IMG/VR virus record: IMGVR_UViG_3300036970_000191
DNA from: an uncultured virus (IMG/VR IMGVR_UViG_3300036970_000191)
Lineage: Duplodnaviria; Heunggongvirae; Uroviricota; Caudoviricetes
Direction: 5' to 3' (one strand)
Length of the DNA stretch: 20,000 nt
Shown here: positions 1 to 15,135 of the stretch, in pieces
Position numbering within the stretch: position 1 is the stretch's first letter
Layout: each line of letters opens with the position of its first letter
Position numbers and translations under genes: made by a program
The notes under the pieces: model-generated
What the model was told of the DNA's origin: nothing
Seen by the model: only the letters and a program-made list of their open reading frames with translations
The model's database searches: none

Positions 1-387
1 ATCGGACTAGGTCGCGCCATCAGCTATCGCACACCACTGCCTTCAATGCCAGTGGCATCCATCGAACAACACTTTCAAATCCAATGCGAACCTGCCATTC
101 GTGACTTCGTCAGCCGGATCAATGAGATGTATGTCATCGATCACGAGATGGTTCGGTCCACGGCGAAGATGCTTTACGTGTTCCGTTACAACCTCACCTA
201 CGACCCCTACACGGTCGCCAATGCGCTAGATCGACTGGCCGCGTTCCAAGAGGGTGTTGTCCCTGAGGCATATCGTGGTATGCTGAACACCGTCACTTCC
301 AGTCAGGAAATGGTTGACAAACTGGCCAACGTGATGGTCCTGTTCCAATCCCAGATTGAACAAACCGAAGACAGTAACAAGGAGTAA
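1..387 (+). CDS. Jumbo-phage protein, 5'-truncated by the window edge; probably virion/head associated
   Basis: Frame 1 is open from base 1 (IGLGRAISYRTPLPSMPV...) to TAG at 385-387. Its 3' end carries the AAGGAG ribosome-binding site of the next gene. Function is inferred from position only. Confidence 0.7.
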   Translation: MGLGRAISYRTPLPSMPVASIEQHFQIQCEPAIRDFVSRINEMYVIDHEMVRSTAKMLYVFRYNLTYDPYTVANALDRLAAFQEGVVPEAYRGMLNTVTSSQEMVDKLANVMVLFQSQIEQTEDSNKE

Positions 388-390
388 GAC

Positions 391-3300
391 GTGGATCTTT
401 CCAACCTGAGTGTGAAAGATCTCTCTAGCCGCATCAAGCGGCTAGAGGAGATCGAACGTGTTCTAAATGACAGCAATCGCACCAAACTAAGTCGTCGTTT
501 GGCGGTTGAACAATACCGTGGTGATCTGGCAGAATACAATGTCGTTTCTCTAGAAGAACCCAGCGCGCTAAAGAAAGTGGTTGGTATCGCACTGGCCTTG
601 CTGGGCATCACCCTGATGGCAAAGATCTGGGCCTCGGCTTCTGATGGGGGTTCAGGAAACGGGAAGAGTTCTTCTGGTGGGTCGGCGTCCACTGCCAAGG
701 CTGTTACGACATACAACGATGTGTCGTCTATTCTCAGCGAAGAAGAGCTAAAGCAGGACAAACAAAAAGCCGACAAGTACCTAAAGGATCAGGTTTTCAC
801 TGACCCGGCAACCCAAAGCCAGTTCATCACTGAGTTCTGGAACAGTTATAAAGGCGGTGGCAACTATTACGTTGGCGCACTGCTGCTTGGCAAAGTGGGT
901 AAAGGTCTTCCCTATCGAGAGGTTTATAAGAAACCAGAGGAGTTCAAGAAGCACATCGCGGCTTTTGAAAAGTCTGTTTCTGCCCTAGAGGCCATGGTGG
1001 ACTATGTTGTTACCATGCCTGGTATTATTAAGGGCCAGTTGGATACAAACGGAATGTCCGACAAAGTTAAAATCGATGTAGCCAATAAAACAAAGGCGGT
1101 CTTGGATACACTCAAGGCAGGTTTTTCTGTTATTGCCGACACACCTCACGAAGGTGAAGCTGACGATTCGGAAGTCGTCAAGAATATGCTTAACGTTGTG
1201 CGTGAGTCATTGGTGGCCGTCAGCGATAACTTTAAGCCCAAGAACGACGCCTCTTTGGACGACATCAAGAAAGCTGCCGATGGTCTAATGAAAATCTTTG
1301 GCACTGACGGCACGAGCGACGCTACAAAAACGTTTGACGCTTTCATCGCCAGTTACGAGAAACATGTCCTTGGCTCGACCAACACCCAAAAAAGCATCAA
1401 TGATGCCGTGGCAGAACTGACCAAGATGCAGAACGATGCGGAGATCGCGGCCAAGTTGAAACTGGGTCAGTCCGCAAGCGACCCCAGTGACCCTAACAAA
1501 ATCTATTCATTTTACAACAACACCATCAAGACTGTTGGGTTCATGGCAAAGACCTGCGCTCGCTTGGTCTCAATTTTCGCAAACCTCGACAAGATGTTTG
1601 TCGCAAGCGAGAAGTCGTTTGCCTCCGCCAGTCGCGTGGTAAAACACGTCAACGATCTGATCAAATCGGAGGCAGGGACCAAAGAGAACATCGGTAAGCT
1701 TTCGGTTGCCCGAGAATCTTTCGACCCTTATGAAATCGCATCGACGCAGCTTTATTCAATCGTACCTCGTCGGCAGATTTCAATCGAATCAAATGGTGCT
1801 GCTACGCCGCAGGGCCAGTTTGATGAGTTTGAGTTCTCCAACTGGATTGACAACGTTTCTCAAAAATGGATCGGTAACGACGTCTCGCTTAGCTGGTCCA
1901 CCGAGTCACTCAATCAGGTTGCCGAGTATTGCCGTGCTGTAGGCATCGAAACCCAGTCCAGCTTTGAAGACACGTTTTATTCTCGTGGCCTTGCCCTTGA
2001 AGACCTTTCCAAAGCCAAGAAGTTTGGCATCCTGCTGGCCATTCTGGCAAGCTTTGGAGGCTTGTTTGCGCTCTGGAAACACTTTAGGAACAAGGATAGC
2101 GGCAACTCTGAATCGGTAGGCTCGGTTGGAGAAACGGTTGCTGCAGTGGAAACCAACGTGGCCAAGATTGCCGAAGGTTCAAAAGACCTTGCCGACCAGA
2201 TTCGCCACATGAAGTTCACTGGTCCTGAAGCTGAGCGCAACCTAAAAACCGTCAAACACCTTAGACAAGGTATTCAAAAGCTTGTGGGTACCAAGGGCAG
2301 TGAAGAAGACGAAATCAAGATGATCGTCGAATTCTTCGATGCCGTGGGTAAAGGCAAGGTCAACGCGATCTACCTTAAAATGGCAGAGAACGAATACCTT
2401 GGCGCGCTAGGCTCACGGTTCGTTGCCGCAGGTCCCTTTGGTAAAGGCAATACGGACAAAGAGGTTTACAAGAAGTTCTTTACGATCTGTAATACGCTGG
2501 CGTCATACCTGCCAAAGCTGTCGCATCGCGCCATTGCAATCTCCGAAGCCTACGTCAAGAACCTCACGAAGCTCTCAACCACCACTCAGCTTGACAAAAC
2601 CACCCTTGACGAATGCAAGCAAAGCTGGCAAGCTGCACTGGACACCAATAAGTCTGAGCTAGACGGTTTTCTAAAAGCGCTTGAAGAAGCAGAGCAACTG
2701 TGTCAGCTTGATCCAAAGGCACAGGAACTCAAAGACCAACACGTCCGTATCCGTGAAGTGATTTCTGTCATTCGAGGTGAATTTGAACGACTCGATTCCT
2801 CGAAGATCACGGACCAGAACGTCATTGCTGATGGGGTTAAAACCCTCTCAGAATGTTCAAACGAAATGAAAAACTTCGTGGAGACTTGGAAGGAGATTGG
2901 TACCAAGTCCCACTCCTCAGGTGGCCTTGATCTTGAAACGCTGGAGAAGTGCAGTAAACAAATCAAAGGCGCTGAAGAATCAATCAAGAAAATCGGCGAA
3001 CTCTTTGCTGAAGCCAAAACCAATACCCCCGATCTGCTCAAGGATCAAAAAGATGCCGACCTCGTCAGCATCATGGGCAATGGAACCAATGGGGCTGTAA
3101 ACGGGCTGCTGGGCCTTAGCAACATCAGTCAAGGCGTTGTTCGTAACATCGGTAACTTCTGCGACAAAATGGACCATATCAAATCGGCGACTGAAGATTT
3201 GGTAAAAGCCATGAATGTTCGCAGTGGTGCATCCACTGAATCGATGGACAATCGTTTCTCCAGACTGCGTCTACCGCCAGGATTGTCGCTGGAAGTCTTT

Positions 3301-4539
3301 GAAGACGACAGCTACATGAACATGACCGATGACAACTACCTTGAAAGCTTCGAGCTACTCAGCAGTGACCTCGATCGTCTGGATCAGGATACACTCGAAG
3401 TTGAACACTGGGTGGAACGCATTCGGCTAAGACGCTCAATCAGTCAAGAAGATGCTCGCTACATCGAACAATTCTGTCCTGGACTACTGACCAACAAACG
3501 GCCATTGGCCACCTTCACAAAGTTCCCCTCTGGCACCAACCTGCAAATCTCCCTTGAAGAAGGCGGTGCTTTGGCAACGGGGATGAAAGTCGCCGTATTT
3601 GCCGCACTGGCAGCCTTGGTGGTTCGTGGGGCCATGTGGATGAAGAAGCGTTTTGAAAACTCTTCCAACTCTCTTGCCGCCATCAAGAATTACCAAGAAG
3701 AGATCGAGAAAGCCACCAAGCGCACAGACGCTCAATCCGTTTCGCTACGGCAACTGCTTGAAGGCGATCAAATCGCTGATCGGGAACTCGACCTCTCGGA
3801 TGGCTTTAAGTTCAGAACCAAGGGTGGTGAATCCGCGATTCATGACCTGCGCGATGAATGTATCCGTAAGGAAATGGCCAATCGAAACTGGGACAAAAAT
3901 GCCAGGATGGAAAGCGCCATTGATCCTAAGGGCGAGATCCACAAAATGTTCATGCCTGTACAAACCTTTGTACTTGAGAACATCGAAGTGCTCACCAAGT
4001 CTCTTGATCAAGTCAAATCGCAAGTGAAAGGGGGTTCCGGGACGGTTTCTCAGACCAGCGCTACCTCATGGAAGGGTATTGAAGCATTGCAACGCGAGGT
4101 CGGTGGCGGAAACATCATTGGCATCGTGGCTTGCGCAGATGCAATCAAAGCCATGGTTGACAATGCTGGCGGGGCCCAACCCAATACCAAGGTCGATTCG
4201 CTGACCTACGCTGATCTCGACAAGAAACGCGTAGAACTCATGAAGTCGTTTAAAGACATCGACAAATCGGTGATCAATAAACTTGACAAACTACTCGATA
4301 AAGCCAAAGGGTTGGAATCCTCTGCCGCTGCTGGTAAGGGCGATGATGCCCAACGCCAAGCAGCCAAGGATTCCGCCAAGGCCGCTCAAGAGGACATTAA
4401 ATCGCTGCAATCTTTGGTGGCCGCTCATTCGGGTGCAACCGAGATTTACAAGCAGTTTTACGAAGCTTTCCTGGCAGGACTCAACCGTTATGGTAAACTC
4501 ATGACCGAGATCCAAAAGAAAGCCACTTCGGCCAAATAA
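391..4539 (+). CDS. Large head/ejection protein (1382 aa), apparently three fused modules resembling phiKZ/SPN3US processed head proteins with a hydrophobic helix
   Basis: GTG start after AAGGAG. Three SLE/ALE sites (aa 53-55, 535-537, 1054-1056) are each followed by a ~20-aa hydrophobic segment and a Ser-rich stretch. The propeptide motif ISQEDARYIEQFCPGLL...TFTKFPSGTNLQISLEE resembles phiKZ-like head proteins. It lies next to the gp87-like gene. Confidence 0.8.
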   Translation: MDLSNLSVKDLSSRIKRLEEIERVLNDSNRTKLSRRLAVEQYRGDLAEYNVVSLEEPSALKKVVGIALALLGITLMAKIWASASDGGSGNGKSSSGGSASTAKAVTTYNDVSSILSEEELKQDKQKADKYLKDQVFTDPATQSQFITEFWNSYKGGGNYYVGALLLGKVGKGLPYREVYKKPEEFKKHIAAFEKSVSALEAMVDYVVTMPGIIKGQLDTNGMSDKVKIDVANKTKAVLDTLKAGFSVIADTPHEGEADDSEVVKNMLNVVRESLVAVSDNFKPKNDASLDDIKKAADGLMKIFGTDGTSDATKTFDAFIASYEKHVLGSTNTQKSINDAVAELTKMQNDAEIAAKLKLGQSASDPSDPNKIYSFYNNTIKTVGFMAKTCARLVSIFANLDKMFVASEKSFASASRVVKHVNDLIKSEAGTKENIGKLSVARESFDPYEIASTQLYSIVPRRQISIESNGAATPQGQFDEFEFSNWIDNVSQKWIGNDVSLSWSTESLNQVAEYCRAVGIETQSSFEDTFYSRGLALEDLSKAKKFGILLAILASFGGLFALWKHFRNKDSGNSESVGSVGETVAAVETNVAKIAEGSKDLADQIRHMKFTGPEAERNLKTVKHLRQGIQKLVGTKGSEEDEIKMIVEFFDAVGKGKVNAIYLKMAENEYLGALGSRFVAAGPFGKGNTDKEVYKKFFTICNTLASYLPKLSHRAIAISEAYVKNLTKLSTTTQLDKTTLDECKQSWQAALDTNKSELDGFLKALEEAEQLCQLDPKAQELKDQHVRIREVISVIRGEFERLDSSKITDQNVIADGVKTLSECSNEMKNFVETWKEIGTKSHSSGGLDLETLEKCSKQIKGAEESIKKIGELFAEAKTNTPDLLKDQKDADLVSIMGNGTNGAVNGLLGLSNISQGVVRNIGNFCDKMDHIKSATEDLVKAMNVRSGASTESMDNRFSRLRLPPGLSLEVFEDDSYMNMTDDNYLESFELLSSDLDRLDQDTLEVEHWVERIRLRRSISQEDARYIEQFCPGLLTNKRPLATFTKFPSGTNLQISLEEGGALATGMKVAVFAALAALVVRGAMWMKKRFENSSNSLAAIKNYQEEIEKATKRTDAQSVSLRQLLEGDQIADRELDLSDGFKFRTKGGESAIHDLRDECIRKEMANRNWDKNARMESAIDPKGEIHKMFMPVQTFVLENIEVLTKSLDQVKSQVKGGSGTVSQTSATSWKGIEALQREVGGGNIIGIVACADAIKAMVDNAGGAQPNTKVDSLTYADLDKKRVELMKSFKDIDKSVINKLDKLLDKAKGLESSAAAGKGDDAQRQAAKDSAKAAQEDIKSLQSLVAAHSGATEIYKQFYEAFLAGLNRYGKLMTEIQKKATSAK

Positions 4540-4549
4540 AGCAAAGCCT

Positions 4550-4581
4550 GGATAGACGGGGGCCTAGGCCCCCGTCTATCC
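4550..4581. terminator. Perfect 32-bp palindrome; probable bidirectional terminator between convergent genes
   Basis: GGATAGACGGGGGCCT|AGGCCCCCGTCTATCC lies between the stops at 4539 (+) and 4591 (-). Confidence 0.8.
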
Positions 4582-4590
4582 TTAATCTAT

Positions 4591-7518
4591 TCACACTCGG
4601 TGAGGAACAAAAACGTAATCGATGTCGTTGATGACACGCAACGATTGGGTGCCTGTCACCACAAGGCGTTTACCCACCACAGGACGAACCGATTTGTCAA
4701 TGACCGTGACCACGTAGTGTTTATCCTCAAACAAACCTGCGATACGGGCACTTAAAATGTCCGTGGAGAAAGCCTCTTTTAAAGCAATCTCAACATCGGT
4801 CTTTGAGATCACGGTCTGCTTTAGCACCGCATCAATAACCCGTCCAGCCCGATCACACAGACTTTGTTTTAGCGAAGGGTTGTCATAGACGCTCTGACTG
4901 ACATCAAAGGTCAGTGTCAGTCTTTGTTCTGATCGAATGGTTTCTGGATCGCCAACACCCGTGATCACTTTCACTTGTCCAAAGTTCTTCTTTGGGTGAA
5001 AGTAAAGTTTGGTTTGATCAATGAGTCGACCAGAAAGATCTTCAAGGTCGTTGTCAATCCATTGGACCACCCTTGTCAAACAATCTTCGTAGTAAGAAGA
5101 CGTACCCACGTCATCGGCATACCGGTAACAGGCGTCCAAAAGGAACATGTCGATCTCACGCAACTGACCGATCACGCCACCATCTGGAATCGGCTGCTGG
5201 TTATTGTCAAGAACGAAGTCTCCAGCACGATGTTTGTACACCGGATCACCAGCGCTATCAAAAACCGGATCACCCTGACTGTGCAGTTTACGCAGGCTCA
5301 CTGCACCACTGACTTCGTCGTAATCGATGATCGGCAAACCGGTGGCATCCGTTTCATAGACGTCGCTTTCATAAAGCATGGGAATGTCCACGGGATAGCG
5401 CAGGTATTCTTGAACCCCGCCGATGGTTCTCATTCGGGTCCAAAGCCGACTCAAACGTCGACCAAAACGAACGTATAGCTTTTCATGAGACAGGCCGTAG
5501 TAAAGAGAACCCTGTTCGTAGTTGCTCAGGCTTGACGTCTCAACCAGTGCGTCAATCGCGCTGTTGATGGTTGTGTTGGGCACATAGTCCTTGATGACGT
5601 AGATCAGGTCAAACTCTGTGTTTAGTGACAGGCTAGAGCTTTCTGTCCCAAAACTCATGCGATCGTCTTCATCCACATCAAAGCGGGTTGGAATGTCAAA
5701 GACAAACAACCATTGACCATCCAATGGCTTTTGCGTGGAAGGGTCGAATGGTCCTTTTAGTTCCCCTTGAATGTAATGTCTGCCATGACTGTCGGTGTAA
5801 GACAACTGCGCTGCAACATCGCCTGCTCGAAGTGCTGTAGGCAAACCGTCGGTTGCCATGACCACGCCTACCCGATAACCAGTGCCATCGGGTTTTACAC
5901 CAACAATGCTGCCGGTTGTTGACGTGTTGATCCCAAGCGAAAGGTTCTCGTCTACAAAATCAACCCCCTCAACCTCAGGGTGCGTCATGTCAAATGCGCT
6001 TAAACGCATGCGATCATAAGACGTGTCCACCACGTAATGAAACGGCGTGAAGAGGTAGTTTGCCGTGTTGATTCGATTGGCCAGATCACTTGGGGTATAG
6101 ACCGAACGATCGTCAAGCAGGTCCACATCCATCTGATCGATTCGCTTAAGACCGCTGCTGGTTTCTTCAAACAAGACGTTTGGTTTAATGACCACTCGTT
6201 CACCAACGCGAACGATCCCTTTGCCATCGATCTCTTCTTCAAGTCGAGTCAGCCACGGCAATACGGTCATGTCCATACCGTTGACCAGATCGCCGTTGGT
6301 TGGAGCAGGTTGATCGCGCGTGGCCACAAAGACACGGTTGGTGACGTTGTCAATATACTTCACCACATCAAAGCCCAATACCGCTGCACTTTCCTTAAGC
6401 TGCAATTCGGTGATCGGCATGCCCATGGCATTGCCCGTACGATTAATGACCCGATCACGCATCTGGACAAAGGTCAAGCCCTTGGTCCCCCCTTGAATCT
6501 TGTACGGGGAAACAATCTTGAATGAACGCATGGTCTGTAGGGGTGTGGAGTACAGGTCAAGCGGTTCCACGCTCTCCATCAGTTTAACCCTAAAGTCCTC
6601 TGCCGTCAGGTTGCTGAGGTTAAGGTTAATGGGTCCTTTGGTGCTGTAGATGTCTACCCTGACATCTTCTTTGATCAGTCCATTGGCAAAGTAAATCTGG
6701 GGAATGTTTACCACGAGGATACCGTTTTGTACCCTCAGACATGCCGTGGCATTGTAGGGATCGTAGACATCATCCACGTGGGTGGTCTTGATCTCTATCC
6801 AGTCAATGGCGTCGCTGGCCCGAGTGTAAACACGAGCATAGTAGAAATAATCCGTAAAGGAAAACTCCTTTCGATAACCCGCCAGACTGTTTAGGTTGAC
6901 GTAGTTGGTCGACAGCCGCAATTGTTTCATGTCAATCGTAACGGCCAGTTTCTTTTTGCCAGCAACGTAATGAATGTTCCAGCTTAGCCGATTGGATTTT
7001 AGGACATCAAACGGAGAATCCACGGAAACATCATAAACCACTGAAATGTTGTCCTGGGGCAGCACCCGAATCTCAATGGGATATTGCGTACAAAACCAGT
7101 GGTCTTCCACCACAACTGAGGTGAACCTTGGAATAACCAGCTTTCTTACGCCATTGGCATTGGGCACCAAGACGGCCCTTGAAGTGACTTCGTCCAAATC
7201 CAGCAGCAACACAAAGGTGCCGGTGGCAGGCGAACTAAAGCGATCCAGAAAGTCCTTGTCTGCCATGTGTCGATACAGGTCAACCATCTTAAGCGTTGCA
7301 GACTTGTACAAAGGGCGAGTGGCGTTTTCAACCGCCAGGATCGTACCTGCGCTGATTGAGCTTGCCATTTCCGTCACCAAGGCAACCGGATTTGAAGCTT
7401 CAACCAATCCAAGTTCACCACCTGAACGTTCGTTAAGATACTGCAATGCCAGGCGGGTCAGTGCCCGTGGATTTATACGCGACGAAACAATCCGTTCCGC
7501 CAGATCAAATGTGGCCAT
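4591..7518 (-). CDS. Baseplate wedge-like structural protein (phiKZ gp87 / SPN3US gp48-like), ~975 aa
   Basis: Long ORF; ATG at 7518 is preferred over TTG at 7524 (AAGGGG upstream). N-terminal ASNPVALVTE and YRHMADKDFLDRFSSPA motifs; GG..LTF..MRDRVIN...PITELQL resembles the T4 gp6/baseplate-J core. Size and synteny match gp87. Confidence 0.8.
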   Translation of the reverse strand: MATFDLAERIVSSRINPRALTRLALQYLNERSGGELGLVEASNPVALVTEMASSISAGTILAVENATRPLYKSATLKMVDLYRHMADKDFLDRFSSPATGTFVLLLDLDEVTSRAVLVPNANGVRKLVIPRFTSVVVEDHWFCTQYPIEIRVLPQDNISVVYDVSVDSPFDVLKSNRLSWNIHYVAGKKKLAVTIDMKQLRLSTNYVNLNSLAGYRKEFSFTDYFYYARVYTRASDAIDWIEIKTTHVDDVYDPYNATACLRVQNGILVVNIPQIYFANGLIKEDVRVDIYSTKGPINLNLSNLTAEDFRVKLMESVEPLDLYSTPLQTMRSFKIVSPYKIQGGTKGLTFVQMRDRVINRTGNAMGMPITELQLKESAAVLGFDVVKYIDNVTNRVFVATRDQPAPTNGDLVNGMDMTVLPWLTRLEEEIDGKGIVRVGERVVIKPNVLFEETSSGLKRIDQMDVDLLDDRSVYTPSDLANRINTANYLFTPFHYVVDTSYDRMRLSAFDMTHPEVEGVDFVDENLSLGINTSTTGSIVGVKPDGTGYRVGVVMATDGLPTALRAGDVAAQLSYTDSHGRHYIQGELKGPFDPSTQKPLDGQWLFVFDIPTRFDVDEDDRMSFGTESSSLSLNTEFDLIYVIKDYVPNTTINSAIDALVETSSLSNYEQGSLYYGLSHEKLYVRFGRRLSRLWTRMRTIGGVQEYLRYPVDIPMLYESDVYETDATGLPIIDYDEVSGAVSLRKLHSQGDPVFDSAGDPVYKHRAGDFVLDNNQQPIPDGGVIGQLREIDMFLLDACYRYADDVGTSSYYEDCLTRVVQWIDNDLEDLSGRLIDQTKLYFHPKKNFGQVKVITGVGDPETIRSEQRLTLTFDVSQSVYDNPSLKQSLCDRAGRVIDAVLKQTVISKTDVEIALKEAFSTDILSARIAGLFEDKHYVVTVIDKSVRPVVGKRLVVTGTQSLRVINDIDYVFVPHRV

Positions 7519-7524
7519 GTGCAA

Positions 7525-8650: not shown

Positions 8651-9754
8651 ATGCTTGAAAAAATCATCATGACGCCCCTGATGGCAGTCGGTCGACTCAC
8701 TGACCTGCTCCGTTCGGCACGCTCAAGTTCGCTGGTGGACTACACCAAAGCCACCCGGTCTGAACCCATCACACTGATCGATGACACCTTGATTTCACTC
8801 GATCAACTCCCCGACATTCTGCAATCGGTTAACTCGATCTACGCTGGTTATTACCTGCAGGCCATTGCCCTGAGCGTGAACGTGGGTAAAGTTGACGTGG
8901 TTCGTTTGCTGGAGAAAGTCAACCCAGCCCGCGATCCGCTGGAAGCTGGTGGTTGGCTGATCGAAGCAGGATTGTCTGCCGAGTCATATCATTATCGCCT
9001 GCCCGGCAAGGATGCCCGTAAAGGTGCCGTGTCTTTGGAAGGCCATCTGGGCGCTGCTGACGACTGTTTACCAGATACAGCGGCAATCAACCAAAAGTCA
9101 CTGGATGTACTCTCAACCTCAACCAACCTCTCGGTTGGCAAGATGTTCAACGTAGAGATCAACAGTGAAGGCAACAGTGCCAGCATCCCCGTCTCGGTTC
9201 GACTGATGTCTGTTCCCATTGACCCATCGACCCTCAACAACATTTTGTCCTATGCCCAAAAAGACAATTCCATGAAGGAACGTTTTTATGGCATGAAGTC
9301 AGGTCGCCTAAGCTTCATCAAAGATGGCATTTTGTGTCGTGACCTGATTCGCGAACATCGCAAGACCCTGATCAACGACCGTTCTGGTGTTTACGCGGAA
9401 ATCGTTAAACGCGCAAACAAGAACAAGATCAGCGGCATGCTGTCGATGAACCCATCAGTTGCCACGGCAAGCAACATCGTCCTGATGTCCTCTGACACCG
9501 CAAGACAACTGGAAGTTGAGATCGGTGGTCGTCTAAAAGACGCTTCGCTGCGTCAGCGGATGTTTGACAAAACCTACCTGATGATTCTGGTGGTGATCGA
9601 CCCTGACTACAAAATGGTTCGTTTCTATTACGATGGTATCTCGACCCACACCGAGCTTTCGTTTAACGACGTGAAGAACCTGAACAAGAACGGTGCAATG
9701 GACGTGGGTGAAGTCCTGCGTACGCTGCAACTGGGTCAATCGCCACGCTTTTAA
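8651..9754 (+). CDS. Internal head / inner-body protein (phiKZ gp89-like)
   Basis: 367 aa. Motifs SLVDYTKATRSEP, IYAGYYLQAIAL, LSVGKMFNVEI, FIKDGILCRDLI. Candidate prohead-protease sites SAE (aa 109-111) and SLE (aa 128-130). Divergent from the gp88-like gene. Confidence 0.8.
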   Translation: MLEKIIMTPLMAVGRLTDLLRSARSSSLVDYTKATRSEPITLIDDTLISLDQLPDILQSVNSIYAGYYLQAIALSVNVGKVDVVRLLEKVNPARDPLEAGGWLIEAGLSAESYHYRLPGKDARKGAVSLEGHLGAADDCLPDTAAINQKSLDVLSTSTNLSVGKMFNVEINSEGNSASIPVSVRLMSVPIDPSTLNNILSYAQKDNSMKERFYGMKSGRLSFIKDGILCRDLIREHRKTLINDRSGVYAEIVKRANKNKISGMLSMNPSVATASNIVLMSSDTARQLEVEIGGRLKDASLRQRMFDKTYLMILVVIDPDYKMVRFYYDGISTHTELSFNDVKNLNKNGAMDVGEVLRTLQLGQSPRF

Positions 9755-11195: not shown

Positions 11196-11251
11196 GTCTA
11201 GCGACCAAGCAAAGAAAAAAGCTTTTTTCAACCCTCTCCATGGAGACAGAC

Positions 11252-12706
11252 ATGTCTAAATTCAATCTGCTGGGACGTTTTTCCGCTCTGGAAAGTGATG
11301 TTCCCGAATCCTCTGTTAGCGCAGCCGAAGACATTCCTCAGGACGTGCTGGAAACCGCCGTTGACACCGAAGTTGATGGTACCGACACCGTAGAAGGTCA
11401 TGCCGTAGAAGCCGAAGAAGCTGAAGCTGATGTTGTCGAAGCCGAAGGCGCTGCAGAAGACCTGCAGGAAACTTCTGAAGCTCTGGAAAGCTATCTGGAG
11501 ATCGTTCAAGACGCTCGTATGAGCCGTCGTGGCCTGACCAAAGGCGAAGCCCACATTCTGTACGTTGGCATCAACAACGCCGTGAAGAAAGTCGGCATGG
11601 ATGTCGGCGATATCGCAGGCAACGTATCGGTTGAAAGCTTTGATGGCGGACGCGACTCTCTGGGTCGTTGCGCTTCTCTGGAAAACGCCATCGTTGATGC
11701 AATCAAAAAATTCTGGGAAGCCATCAAGAACCAAATCAGCAAGATGGTCAAGTACGTTCGTGACTGGTGGCTGAAGCATCTGGACGGTGCAGCTCGTCTG
11801 AAGAAAAAAGCCGAGAAACTCAAAGAGAAAGCCAACGGTACCACCGGTACCGCCAAAGAGAAGAAGGTAAAGCTGTCGGTACATCGCCAACTTTCCAAAG
11901 GTAAAAGCGTGTCTGACATCGACTTCATCAAGTCGGGCTTGGACATTACCACTCAAATCATCGATTCGCTCACCGTTGGTCGTATCGCCGATAGTTTTTC
12001 CGAAAACCTTGACGAAGTTGAAAAAGCGGTTAACGAAATCTACGATAACGATACCCCAGTCGCTGCCAGTGCCGTGAAAATTGACCTCTCTAAGGTAGGT
12101 ATGGCGCAACAGAGCGTCATGAAGGTTGACCCCAAATATAACAAGGTTGTGGGCACCGACGGTAGCGAATTTGTTGCCACCGTTACCGATGAGCTGCCGG
12201 GTTATAAAATCTTCGCCATGGGTAAGGCCAACTCGAATTTCGTTTCTAAGTACACTGGCGAAAGCGATCCGGTTAAAAAATCCGAGCTTTTCAAACGTTA
12301 CGTCGAAGGACAAAAACCGAATGTTCGTTATGCGGTCGATAAGATCCCCGAAATCGATTCGAGTGCCGAGTATAAAACTCTTACCCCCAGCGAATGTTCA
12401 GAACTTTGCGATGGCGTGATCAAAATGTGTGAGTCAGTAATGGCTTATAAACAGAATTTCGATCGTTACGAATCTGCAACTAAGAAGTTTCTGAACAAGA
12501 TGGATGGTATTTACAAGAAAACCATCAAAGGAGATGAGAAGTCCGCTATGATTAATCCTAAGGTAGGGAAGAATCTGGGCGGTGCTGCCGCTTCTTATAT
12601 TCGTGGTCGTACAACCGCCATTACATCTCTGATCGGATACGGCAACGGCTTGGGTCGTGCTAGTTGTGCATACGTTCAATCGTCTCTGTCCCAGTACAAA
12701 GACTGA
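11252..12706 (+). CDS. Internal head protein, phiKZ gp93/gp162/gp163 and SPN3US gp53/gp54-like family; paralog 1
   Basis: Start at 11252 is supported by GGAG at 11242-11245 and by alignment with paralog 2 (MSKFNLLGRFSALESDVP vs MSIMKLGRFAALESDVP). Very acidic ~144-aa propeptide with ALE/ALE/SVE/SLE sites, then SLE|NAIVDAIKKFWEAIKNQI, an amphipathic helix typical of this family. Confidence 0.85.
   Translation: MSKFNLLGRFSALESDVPESSVSAAEDIPQDVLETAVDTEVDGTDTVEGHAVEAEEAEADVVEAEGAAEDLQETSEALESYLEIVQDARMSRRGLTKGEAHILYVGINNAVKKVGMDVGDIAGNVSVESFDGGRDSLGRCASLENAIVDAIKKFWEAIKNQISKMVKYVRDWWLKHLDGAARLKKKAEKLKEKANGTTGTAKEKKVKLSVHRQLSKGKSVSDIDFIKSGLDITTQIIDSLTVGRIADSFSENLDEVEKAVNEIYDNDTPVAASAVKIDLSKVGMAQQSVMKVDPKYNKVVGTDGSEFVATVTDELPGYKIFAMGKANSNFVSKYTGESDPVKKSELFKRYVEGQKPNVRYAVDKIPEIDSSAEYKTLTPSECSELCDGVIKMCESVMAYKQNFDRYESATKKFLNKMDGIYKKTIKGDEKSAMINPKVGKNLGGAAASYIRGRTTAITSLIGYGNGLGRASCAYVQSSLSQYKD
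11810..11861 (+). repeat. DNA block shared with 13346-13397 (48/52 identical; two perfect 23-mers)
   Basis: GCCGAGAAACTCAAAGAGAAAGC-N6-TACCACCGGTACCGCCAAAGAGA occurs in both paralogs. Another perfect 23-mer, TACGTTCGTGACTGGTGGCTGAA, is at 11753-11775 and 13289-13311. Confidence 0.9.
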
Positions 12707-12805: not shown

Positions 12806-14290
12806 ATGTCCATTATGAAACTCGGTCGCTTTGCCGCTCTGGAAAGCGATGTGCCCGATTCCCCCGTTCTCGACGCAGATGATCTGGACGAAAGTGGCGC
12901 TCCCGTAGACGCTTCGAACACCGTTGAAGCCGTCGCTATCGACGCCGCTGAAGTAGAGCAACCGGTGATCGAGGAAGCCAACGAAGAGCTCGAAACCCTC
13001 GACGATTCCGCAGAATCCCTGGAAGCCTATCTGGATTTCATCCAGGAAGCCAAGCAAAATGGCGGTATGGATAAAAACACCGCTAAAGCCGTTAAGATTG
13101 GACTGGACAGCGCATTGCGTTCGGTTGGAACAAACGCCGAAAATTTCCTGGGCATGAGTCAGGCCTCTTTGGAATCATTCGGTACCAATCGTCGCTTGAA
13201 CCAAACCATTTCTCTGGAAAATGCGGTAACTGAAGCACTGAGATCTGTTTGGGAGGCTATTAAACGGGGGATCAACAAGTTGGTCACCTACGTTCGTGAC
13301 TGGTGGCTGAAAAACTTTGACATCGCTACACGAATTAAGAAGCGTGCCGAGAAACTCAAAGAGAAAGCGAGCAATACCACCGGTACCGCCAAAGAGACCA
13401 AGATTCAGGTCCCTAATATTTCTCAACTACATATCTCGAAGAAGTCGCCAACGGCTAAGGAGATTGTTGAGAGTATTAATAAGGTAATGGGTCCATTTGA
13501 AGATTTTTCCACAGGAAAAATTTCGTCGAGCTTTCCGGATATGATGGATTCGATGGTTGACGAAGCCGAAAAAGGCATTGTTTCAATCGAGAATAAGAAT
13601 GATGTGAGTCAGTTCCCCGATTTTGTGGTTCAAAGTCTGGTGGCCGGACTTCTTGAAAATCTAACAAAAGGACTCGCTAGTGACCCGGCATACGCCTTAG
13701 CTCGCGATAGCTTCGAGGGACATGCCACACGTTTTAGTTCTTACGGGGAATATTCGGTCTACGTTGGGAGAAGTCACCAGTTGTGCGGCGGAAAAGCAAT
13801 GTTCGGTTTTGGTAAAACTGGAATGGATGCCCTAGTTAAAAACGTAGATAAGTCTAAACCTGCCGAAGTCTTGGCTGCCTCCGAAAAGCTCGCACGTTTT
13901 GTATTTCTCGACATCCGGGACTATTCGGAAAAGAAAGTCGAGGTCGATTCTAATACAAACGGTCCTACCCTGAAGACCAGTGAAGTGACAGAAATCTGCA
14001 GTGCTGTCATTGATGCCATGGAGTCTATTATGGCGTATAAAGCGGCTTATGGCAAATATGAAAAGGTAACCAAAGACACGATCAAGAAACTGGATAAACT
14101 GACTAACAATAATAAGCTCGATTCCGATAATCCGGATAAAGCTAAATGTGTTAGGACAGTTGCTAAAAACGCAAGCAGCCTCATCAAGAGCGTAACCCAT
14201 TCGATTAACAGTACGATGGGTTACCTAGTGACCACTTCTCGCGCAGCACTGAACTACTGCAACAGTTCTCTGGCTCAGTACAAAAACTGA
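12806..14290 (+). CDS. Internal head protein, same family; paralog 2
   Basis: 494 aa. Acidic ~138-aa propeptide with ALE/SLE/SLE/SLE sites. Shares YVRDWWLK, AEKLKEKA..TTGTAKE and the C-terminal SSL.QYK with paralog 1. Confidence 0.85.
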   Translation: MSIMKLGRFAALESDVPDSPVLDADDLDESGAPVDASNTVEAVAIDAAEVEQPVIEEANEELETLDDSAESLEAYLDFIQEAKQNGGMDKNTAKAVKIGLDSALRSVGTNAENFLGMSQASLESFGTNRRLNQTISLENAVTEALRSVWEAIKRGINKLVTYVRDWWLKNFDIATRIKKRAEKLKEKASNTTGTAKETKIQVPNISQLHISKKSPTAKEIVESINKVMGPFEDFSTGKISSSFPDMMDSMVDEAEKGIVSIENKNDVSQFPDFVVQSLVAGLLENLTKGLASDPAYALARDSFEGHATRFSSYGEYSVYVGRSHQLCGGKAMFGFGKTGMDALVKNVDKSKPAEVLAASEKLARFVFLDIRDYSEKKVEVDSNTNGPTLKTSEVTEICSAVIDAMESIMAYKAAYGKYEKVTKDTIKKLDKLTNNNKLDSDNPDKAKCVRTVAKNASSLIKSVTHSINSTMGYLVTTSRAALNYCNSSLAQYKN

Positions 14291-14487: not shown

Positions 14488-15135
14488 ATGGCTACCACCA
14501 AGCAACAACGCCGTTTTAACGGTGCCAAAAACGTTGTTGCGGCACATCGCCGCAACAGCAAAACCACCACCGCCACTGCTCCGGCTGCACCCGTTGCACC
14601 GGTAGTTCCGGCTGCTACTGAGCAGGCCGAAGCAATCGTAGTTAACCTGGACGCAAGTCCGGTCAACGCGCCTGCGGCACCTGCTGAACCCGCTGCTGCT
14701 CCTGAGGTTCCTGTTGTCCCAGAGGACCCTAAGGCTACTGCTGAGGCCCCTGAGGTTCCAGAGCAGAAGGAACCCGCCACCCCTGCGGCACCCGCTGAAC
14801 CTGCTGCGCCTGCTGGCTTCACGGTCGAGCAGGAACTGAGCTTCATCGGGATGGGGTTGAAAACCCTTCTCGGGGTCGAGCAGGACATCCCGACCACCCC
14901 AGAAGACCTCCTCCTGCTGGGTCTTCGTACCGCCCGCCAGACCCTTATGGGTCTCTTGGCAAACGAAGAAGTAGTGGCAGGCATCCAGGCCAAGAAGGTC
15001 GAGTTGCTGAACAAGGCGAAAGCCTTGGTACCGACCGCTCCTGCTGCTGCCGCTGAACCGGCTCCTGCTGCTGCTCACTGCAGTGAAGAAGACCTCCGCA
15101 AGATGGGCATGTCTCTCGACGACGTCTATCTGTAA
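14488..15135 (+). CDS. Hypothetical Ala/Pro/Glu-rich protein (215 aa), probably early and largely disordered
   Basis: Strong AAGGAG RBS. Basic N-terminus, repeated PAAPAEPAA, a helical segment at about aa 110-175 and an acidic tail. It has its own promoter candidate and terminator. Confidence 0.8.
   Translation: MATTKQQRRFNGAKNVVAAHRRNSKTTTATAPAAPVAPVVPAATEQAEAIVVNLDASPVNAPAAPAEPAAAPEVPVVPEDPKATAEAPEVPEQKEPATPAAPAEPAAPAGFTVEQELSFIGMGLKTLLGVEQDIPTTPEDLLLLGLRTARQTLMGLLANEEVVAGIQAKKVELLNKAKALVPTAPAAAAEPAPAAAHCSEEDLRKMGMSLDDVYL
14671..14807 (+). repeat. Intragenic direct repeat encoding PAAPAEPAA
   Basis: CCTGCGGCACCTGCTGAACCCGCTGC (14671-14696) vs CCTGCGGCACCCGCTGAACCTGCTGC (14782-14807), with a degenerate copy near 15040-15070. 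Confidence 0.8.

Follow-up and report, generated by a model that had tools for sequence, protein, structure and literature searches.

The window analysed here is a 20,000-nucleotide stretch of DNA from an uncultured member of the Caudoviricetes (IMG/VR record IMGVR_UViG_3300036970_000191), and it holds structural genes of a phiKZ-like jumbo phage, of which tail-tube, internal-head (PF12699) and head-tail joining genes are recognized by Pfam and PHROGs. The subject of the present work is an open reading frame (ORF) at positions 391-4539, which sits between a gp85-like gene and a convergent gp87-like gene and which, by synteny with cultured phages, is assigned to the slot of phiKZ gp86, SPN3US gp47 and Goslar gp65. 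Its product appears to be a head protein precursor of three modules that are probably separated by the head protease of the phage. The parts of the gene, with positions in amino acids (aa) given for the protein, are the following.

379..384, + strand: ribosome-binding site AAGGAG, directly 5' of the stop codon at 385-387, which ends the upstream gp85-like gene

391..4539, + strand: putative three-module gp86-slot head protein precursor, 1382 aa, ~152 kDa, in a single stop-free frame

391..555, + strand: N-terminal leader, aa 1-55, ending with AVE-40 and SLE-55, both motifs being present in 7/7 other three-module proteins

556..1716, + strand: predicted mature part of module 1, aa 56-442, 41.5 kDa, with a hydrophobic helix, a Ser/Gly spacer and a helical body

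1717..2001, + strand: acidic internal leader 1 (linker 1), aa 443-537, with conserved STE-505 and ALE-537; low-confidence in the structural model and probably disordered

2002..3240, + strand: predicted mature part of module 2, aa 538-950, 45 kDa, a paralog of module 1

3241..3558, + strand: acidic internal leader 2 (linker 2), aa 951-1056, ending with SLE-1056; it reproduces in full the N-terminal propeptide of stand-alone gp86-family proteins

3559..4536, + strand: predicted mature part of module 3, aa 1057-1382, 35 kDa, the gp86/gp47 ortholog

The ORF, which starts with GTG, is real and is intact across independent assemblies. Full-length ORFs of 1371, 1384 and 1405 aa occur in other Logan/ENA assemblies, and the full-length three-module ORFs overall span 1321-1405 aa in several such assemblies, with one more of 1418 aa. 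Four runs from other studies were compared with the window: a contig of one covers window positions 1-4046 without a gap, and linker 2 is spanned in two further runs, in one of which linker 1 is spanned as well; the indels listed for these runs are limited to a 6-base insertion and a compensated one-base pair. All 24 runs listed derive from metagenomes of wastewater, groundwater, sludge or aquatic habitats. An earlier note on this DNA, made from the sequence alone and referred to below as the original prediction, had described a single ORF, and these full-length copies and independent contigs bear it out; the precursor mass of ~145 kDa that it gave has to be corrected to the computed ~152 kDa. 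It is very improbable that three separate genes were merged by an assembly error or that the modules are made from internal translation starts. Separate genes would have a precedent in RP12 and pEa_SNUABM_37, which carry two separate family members in tandem in this slot, but the full-length ORFs in other assemblies and the gap-free contig from another study speak against a merger. A methionine is present at aa 952, in favour of an internal start, but it is not kept in distant three-module proteins, and the in-frame starts led by a Shine-Dalgarno sequence are the AAGGAG-led GTG and one TTG at aa 356, none being found near modules 2 or 3. Both forms of this explanation are largely refuted.

The anatomy set out in the original prediction was recovered in most respects. 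The junctions lie where they had been placed, at SLE-55, ALE-537 and SLE-1056, the helix after each of them is hydrophobic (Kyte-Doolittle 19-mer peaks of 2.1, 1.84 and 2.13), and the linkers, expected to be acidic and ~95-105 aa long, are 95 and 106 aa long with isoelectric points of 4.15 and 4.59, compared to 6.5-8.9 for the mature parts. The linkers had also been called dense in S/A/G-x-E motifs, and this holds above chance, but only modestly: the leader and linkers have 13 sites in 262 residues and the mature parts 20 in 1120 (Fisher p=0.006, or p=0.054 when counted per Glu), and 5 of the 13 define the borders of the regions, while the interior sites alone number 8 against 4.2 in shuffles (p=0.035). 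The conservation of the sites is the stronger signal. Sites 40, 55, 537 and 1056 are kept in 7/7 other three-module proteins, down to ~19% identity, and site 505 in 6/7, although three of these seven are close strains, which tempers the comparison; none of the 20 S/A/G-x-E sites in the bodies is kept in more than 4/7. Conservation is also higher in the linkers than in the module-1 and module-2 bodies.

The conserved sites can be related to cuts that have been mapped in other phages. According to extracts of one study (PMC5694885), phiKZ gp86 is cut at SQE-122, 201phi2-1 gp148 at SQE-113 and SPN3US gp47 at AVE-79, with ALE-111 expected, and extracts of another (PMC10052503) describe an A-x-E rule and multiple cuts inside propeptides. 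E1056 aligns with the mapped phiKZ gp86 cut and is the sole invariant column of alignment A2. In the alignment column of phiKZ SQE-116 (which is SQE-122 in the 428-aa PDB numbering), Glu is present in 27/29 single-module proteins and the full S/A/G-x-E motif in 24/29, and the neighbouring PF12699 proteins have the same motifs in their leaders. Together with the Glu-ending peptides of Goslar described below, the conserved sites and the alignment of E1056 support the earlier proposal that a head protease cuts after S/A-x-E, a mode of processing that would apply to this phage by analogy.

The kinship of the modules is uneven. Modules 1 and 2 are clearly related (Smith-Waterman (SW) z=12; hhalign 95.9%) and share an in-register 35-nt DNA repeat (898-932 / 2440-2474), and they are paralogs, an added duplicated pair. 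The similarity of module 1 to module 3 and of module 2 to module 3 is weak (hhalign 3.5% and 27.8%; SW z 2.2 and 5.7), and linker 1 has no detectable homology with either linker 2 or the N-terminal leader (hhalign ~1%). The statement that one architecture occurs three times is correct for anatomy, but in sequence the clear relationship is the one between modules 1 and 2. A profile built from 13 stand-alone single-module proteins matches the ORF three times, with matches 1 and 2 beginning at the SLE and ALE junctions (independent E-values (iE) 1.5e-3 and 3e-7) and match 3 beginning inside leader 2 (3e-34). Module 3 with its internal leader is clearly a gp86-family protein by sequence, and is the gp86 ortholog: a 19-gene profile of cultured slot genes matches module 3 at 7.7e-19, hhalign gives 99.6% to the single-module proteins and 98.7% to an 11-gene cultured set that includes gp86, leader 2 matches the junction profile with an iE of 2.5e-21, and PHROG 32764 matches junction 3. 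Modules 1 and 2, at 94-96% to the single-module set and ~1% to the cultured set, appear only weakly tied to the gp86 family. No direct match of modules 1 and 2 to the phiKZ-type orthologs or to module 3 was detected by hhalign, and the structural link is middling, since phiKZ gp86 (8y6v_G) ranks 35th for the module-1 body among 48,161 solved chains (Z 5.9, rmsd (root-mean-square deviation) 6.7); its 225-residue alignment is the longest among the 50 matches listed, but the match may reflect only a common helical arrangement. Both points count against the reading of the ORF as three gp86-slot modules. The original claim of three fused paralogs therefore stands in so far as gp86-slot modules are fused and the first two are paralogous, but the tie of those two to the third is weak; and the suggested comparison with phiKZ gp83-86 brought gp86 into the family and no other of these proteins.

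Other searches had little to add. Two identities were rejected, an Rz-like PHROG match of the ORF being an artefact of the hydrophobic helices, and a PF12699 internal head protein being contradicted by the lack of a Pfam match for the ORF and its thirds where the downstream genes match at 1e-39 and 1e-43. Pfam yielded only matches below cut-off for the ORF, a PDB sequence search yielded none, and tblastn against 50,697 phage records returned RP12/RP31 only, over aa 1003-1102 (3 records). The AlphaFold models are poor (mean predicted local distance difference test score 50 and 57). Foldseek gave no match in the PDB at E<=0.001, a wide fold search with module 3 gave coiled coils only, and the ESM Atlas gave no usable match to module 2; in BFVD two RP12 slot proteins came 2nd and 4th, with TM-scores of only 0.16-0.17. 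The profile of alignment A2 matched generic helical bundles in the PDB and Goslar gp65 only at E 1.8. No protease domain was found in the ORF.

Relatives were sought with modules 2-3 in 1.84 billion representatives, and multi-module forms are 11 of the 25 found with this query, which favours multi-module matches: 5 have three modules (1321-1418 aa), 6 have two (890-1055 aa) and 14 have one (417-597 aa). When longer forms (890-2540 aa) were sought, only the four close three-module proteins came up, and shorter stand-alone forms of modules 1-2 were absent among 7999 candidates, which is weak evidence. Locus searches gave no match in viral_contigs and one locus in metagenome_contigs, that of a relative (L007) whose protein is closely like P0003 (39% to the window, modules 2-3); it has the same synteny, in the order DNA polymerase-like, gp84-like, gp85-like and fused gene. 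Among 16 cultured loci examined, 14 have only slot genes of 336-573 aa, the RTH11 locus is rearranged, and in Goslar the slot is filled by two genes of ~930 aa. The fusion is accordingly less of a rarity than had been supposed; it is a variant of a recurring multi-module kind, one form of which has already been structurally solved. No literature that calls these head proteins polyproteins was found in a search that included the Goslar preprint and left most subscription papers outside its range.

The solved form is Goslar gp65 (934 aa; L002 14891-17695; PDB 11fg/11mk), which is accompanied by gp64 (930 aa; L002 12039-14831). The anatomy of gp65 runs from a leader and a body through an acidic linker (-13.8 net charge per 100 residues) to a hydrophobic helix and a second body, and the family profile matches it twice; its halves have no detectable mutual similarity (z 2.3). 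Extracts of the structural study (PMC13742148) place gp65 in the inner vertex-binding complex in 55 copies, with a second folded domain at the position of phiKZ gp28, and report ~110 copies of gp64 in the virion and its absence from the model. All 60 gp65 rows and 70 gp64 rows of the published peptide table (data S3 of PMC13742148, a single sample) were considered. In gp65, E506 is the last residue of one peptide, and another begins with D510, which follows SFE-509; in gp64, E686 is the last residue of three peptides, and no peptide crosses it. Non-tryptic C-termini account for 4/130 rows and are all Glu (gp65 E506, gp64 E686). No row of the Goslar table holds the tryptic gp65 peptides 505-523 and 560-577, which would bridge the sites; would-be peptides spanning the Goslar sites are 18-30 residues long. 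These peptides suggest internal cutting, for which they are good, non-final support. As separate observations, gp64 may consist of three parts split by L/V-x-Q-E sites at 110, 381 and 686, and the PDB chain 36za_C7, labelled 'Inner-peripheral baseplate spoke gp32', carries gp65 residues 134-934, apparently through a naming slip.

It is probable, on the evidence of sequence conservation and of analogy with relatives, that the precursor of the window is cut into three by the head protease. The three gp86-slot modules, with an acidic leader for each, would be made as one 152-kDa precursor and built into the prohead at the inner face of the capsid vertices, a location suggested by phiKZ gp86 and Goslar gp65. 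A protease of the gp175/gp245 type, encoded elsewhere and acting in trans, would cut after S/A-x-E at aa 55, 537 and 1056 and trim near aa 442, 505 and 950-968, and the products would be three equimolar helical proteins of ~41, 45 and 35 kDa, each with a hydrophobic helix at its N-terminus.

Several observations weigh against this interpretation. In extracts of PMC13742148, the Goslar authors treat gp65 as one protein with two domains, and neither these extracts nor the preprint, in a term search, mention internal cleavage. The expected absence of linker peptides fails in gp65, where two internal-leader peptides are present in the virion table. Many non-tryptic N-termini in this table do not follow Glu, the residues before E506 and E686 form K-x-E, which is outside the S/A/G-x-E motif, uncut peptides span LKQE-110 and LVQE-381 of gp64, and a positive control for semi-tryptic starts at predicted sites of Goslar gp58 and gp57 revealed uncut forms only. 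The 14 mapped substrate sites of SPN3US remove terminal propeptides only, being mapped N-terminally, with no two-way split of a protein (extracts of PMC10052503). Much of this would follow if the product were a single multi-domain vertex protein which loses only its N-terminal leader, and whose extra domains fill neighbouring positions as the second gp65 domain does at the gp28 position, the internal sites being relics or partly cut. Such an arrangement is judged distinctly unlikely, because relic sites are not expected to be invariant while the bodies fall to 11-40% identity, because gp65 and gp64 yield Glu-ending peptides and no spanning ones, and because linker 1 is low-confidence in the model and is therefore probably accessible.

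Division of the precursor into three would have some general consequences. The processing performed by phiKZ-like head proteases is described mostly as the removal of terminal propeptides, and a gene of repeated leader-plus-body units that is split in the prohead would be a way to load several proteins at the vertices in a fixed ratio; it would also change the reading of the published two-domain gp65 of Goslar. Viral polyproteins with a built-in protease likewise produce several equimolar products from one ORF, but the cut proposed here would take place inside the prohead, with the head protease acting in trans. Among phage proteins, phiKZ gp86 (8y6v_G, cut by gp175) resembles the ORF in its slot after gp85, in the homologous leader and junction of module 3 and in the weak fold match of module 1; it differs in having one 422-aa module with an amphipathic first helix, whereas the ORF has hydrophobic helices and comprises three modules with two internal leaders. 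Goslar gp65/gp64 share the slot, the anatomy, the two profile matches of gp65 and the internal Glu-ending peptides, but are two long genes whose sites look like V/K-x-E and which tblastn does not match to the ORF. SPN3US gp47 (573 aa, cut by gp245) shares the slot and an S/A-x-E site followed by a hydrophobic helix (profile E 6e-7), but has a single module. The PF12699 proteins (phiKZ gp92-97; SPN3US gp53/54) also have an acidic leader with repeated S/A-x-E followed by a helical body, but the ORF has no PF12699 match and the junction profile scores these proteins at iE 0.06-4 only.

The function of the hydrophobic helices is a further issue. As to the original prediction of N-terminal membrane helices, the three helices are hydrophobic and non-amphipathic (mean hydrophobicity 0.67-0.86, moment 0.08-0.16), but their uncharged runs are only 12-18 residues long, and the corresponding helix is amphipathic in phiKZ gp86, PhiPA3, RP12 and Eowyn; the hydrophobic type is found in gp47, pVa-21, PhiEaH1, Xoo-sp14 and the second gp65 module. 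Membrane insertion of the helices is possible on these sequence properties. A role in the ejection conduit or in the early phage infection (EPI) vesicle had also been proposed and is not sustained by the relatives: gp86 and both gp65 domains lie in the inner vertex-binding complex, where cut phiKZ gp86 forms an elongated helical edge beside the gp85 dimer (extracts of PMC11297242), and gp86 is unnamed in the available text of PMC13250141 and of the EPI-vesicle preprint. A capsid-lining role is shown in relatives, and ejection would be an extrapolation from them. In extracts of a phage transposon-sequencing (TnSeq) preprint, the essential minor capsid genes at 37 C are orf28, 91 and 119 only, gp86 being unnamed. 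Empty Goslar capsids without the vertex complex, which in extracts of PMC13742148 are called defective assemblies, are uninformative on ejection.

The body of module 1 is unusually variable. In two close strains it shows an identity of only 31-32%, against 95-98% for the leader and 81-96% for linker 1, and the contigs diverge at ~nt 680 and rejoin at ~1714, which correspond to the end of the helix-spacer and to the ARE-442 site. This ~31%-identical allele (window 680-1714) is found in the close strains P0028 and P0029 and in runs X2 and X7, and shorter diverged patches occur at window 1051-1231 and 4061-4185. The divergence of the body beside a well-kept leader and linker 1 is one sign of a host-facing role, and the swapped body points to a candidate host-facing protein. 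It is conceivable that the cut products leave with the DNA and insert their N-terminal helices in the host inner membrane, in an ejection conduit or early infection vesicle, which would be compatible with the proposed division of the precursor. The hydrophobic, low-moment character of all three helices and the divergence of the module-1 body, as expected of a host-facing part, fit this idea, as does SPN3US gp47, which according to extracts of PMC5694885 is essential, has a predicted transmembrane helix right after the cut and gives mutant particles that look intact. The idea is nonetheless judged unlikely: besides the short uncharged runs, the amphipathic helices in phiKZ, PhiPA3, RP12 and Eowyn and the silence of the EPI-vesicle text on gp86, the resolved gp86 and gp65 line the capsid, the vertex complex also includes the gp65 domain that has a hydrophobic helix, provided that the two modelled domains correspond to the two modules, and the ejection of gp47 is itself inferred in the extracts of its source. 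A bolder proposal, which is considered unlikely, is that the gp86 slot serves chimalliviruses as a polyprotein cassette that can be expanded, in which one module docks at the vertex and protease-freed riders with N-terminal membrane anchors are injected and help to open or anchor the early infection vesicle, the module-1 body being a swappable host-adapted allele in a fixed frame of leader and cleavage sites.

The remaining features of the window that bear on the locus are these.

1..387, + strand: upstream gp85-like gene, cut by the window start, assigned by synteny and a PHROG 8529 match

4550..4581, no strand assigned: perfect 16-bp inverted repeat, terminator-like, between converging genes

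4591..7524, - strand: gp87-like virion gene, a locus marker matching 290 phage records at ~30%

8651-9754: gp89-like gene with SAE-111 and SLE-130, presumably processed, as is its phiKZ counterpart

11240-12706 and 12806-14290: internal head proteins of the PF12699 family, whose acidic leaders are rich in S/A-x-E (8 and 7 sites, respectively, in the first 150 residues)

In phiKZ, gp85 is the partner of gp86 in the vertex-binding complex (extracts of PMC11297242). The inverted repeat at 4550-4581 is probably a two-way terminator; a terminator scan did not detect this hairpin, and no sigma-70-like promoter was found in window 1-4700. At window 14488-15135 there is a low-complexity ORF of 215 aa, rich in Ala, Pro and Glu, that is matched in neither Pfam nor PHROGs.

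Head-protein loci of some cultured phages gave further observations. A second lengthened head-protein gene is RTH11 WJJ54912 (L004 2362-5154, 930 aa). The internal head protein that it encodes has undergone a recent tandem duplication of ~215 aa (SW z 86), and many S/A/G-x-E sites precede its PF12699-type unit. A ~340-aa gene with no family-profile score lies between the gp85-like and gp86-like genes of Totoro (L009 10147-11157), FBKp24 (L010 10152-11192) and PhiEaH1 (L012 10362-11396). Genes of ~760-820 aa, about double the usual size, occur in the internal-head cluster of Totoro (L009 1-2106), FBKp24 (L010 1-2066), FLC9 (L011 1-2020) and phiKZ (gp97, L005 28883-30001), and are possibly further fusions.

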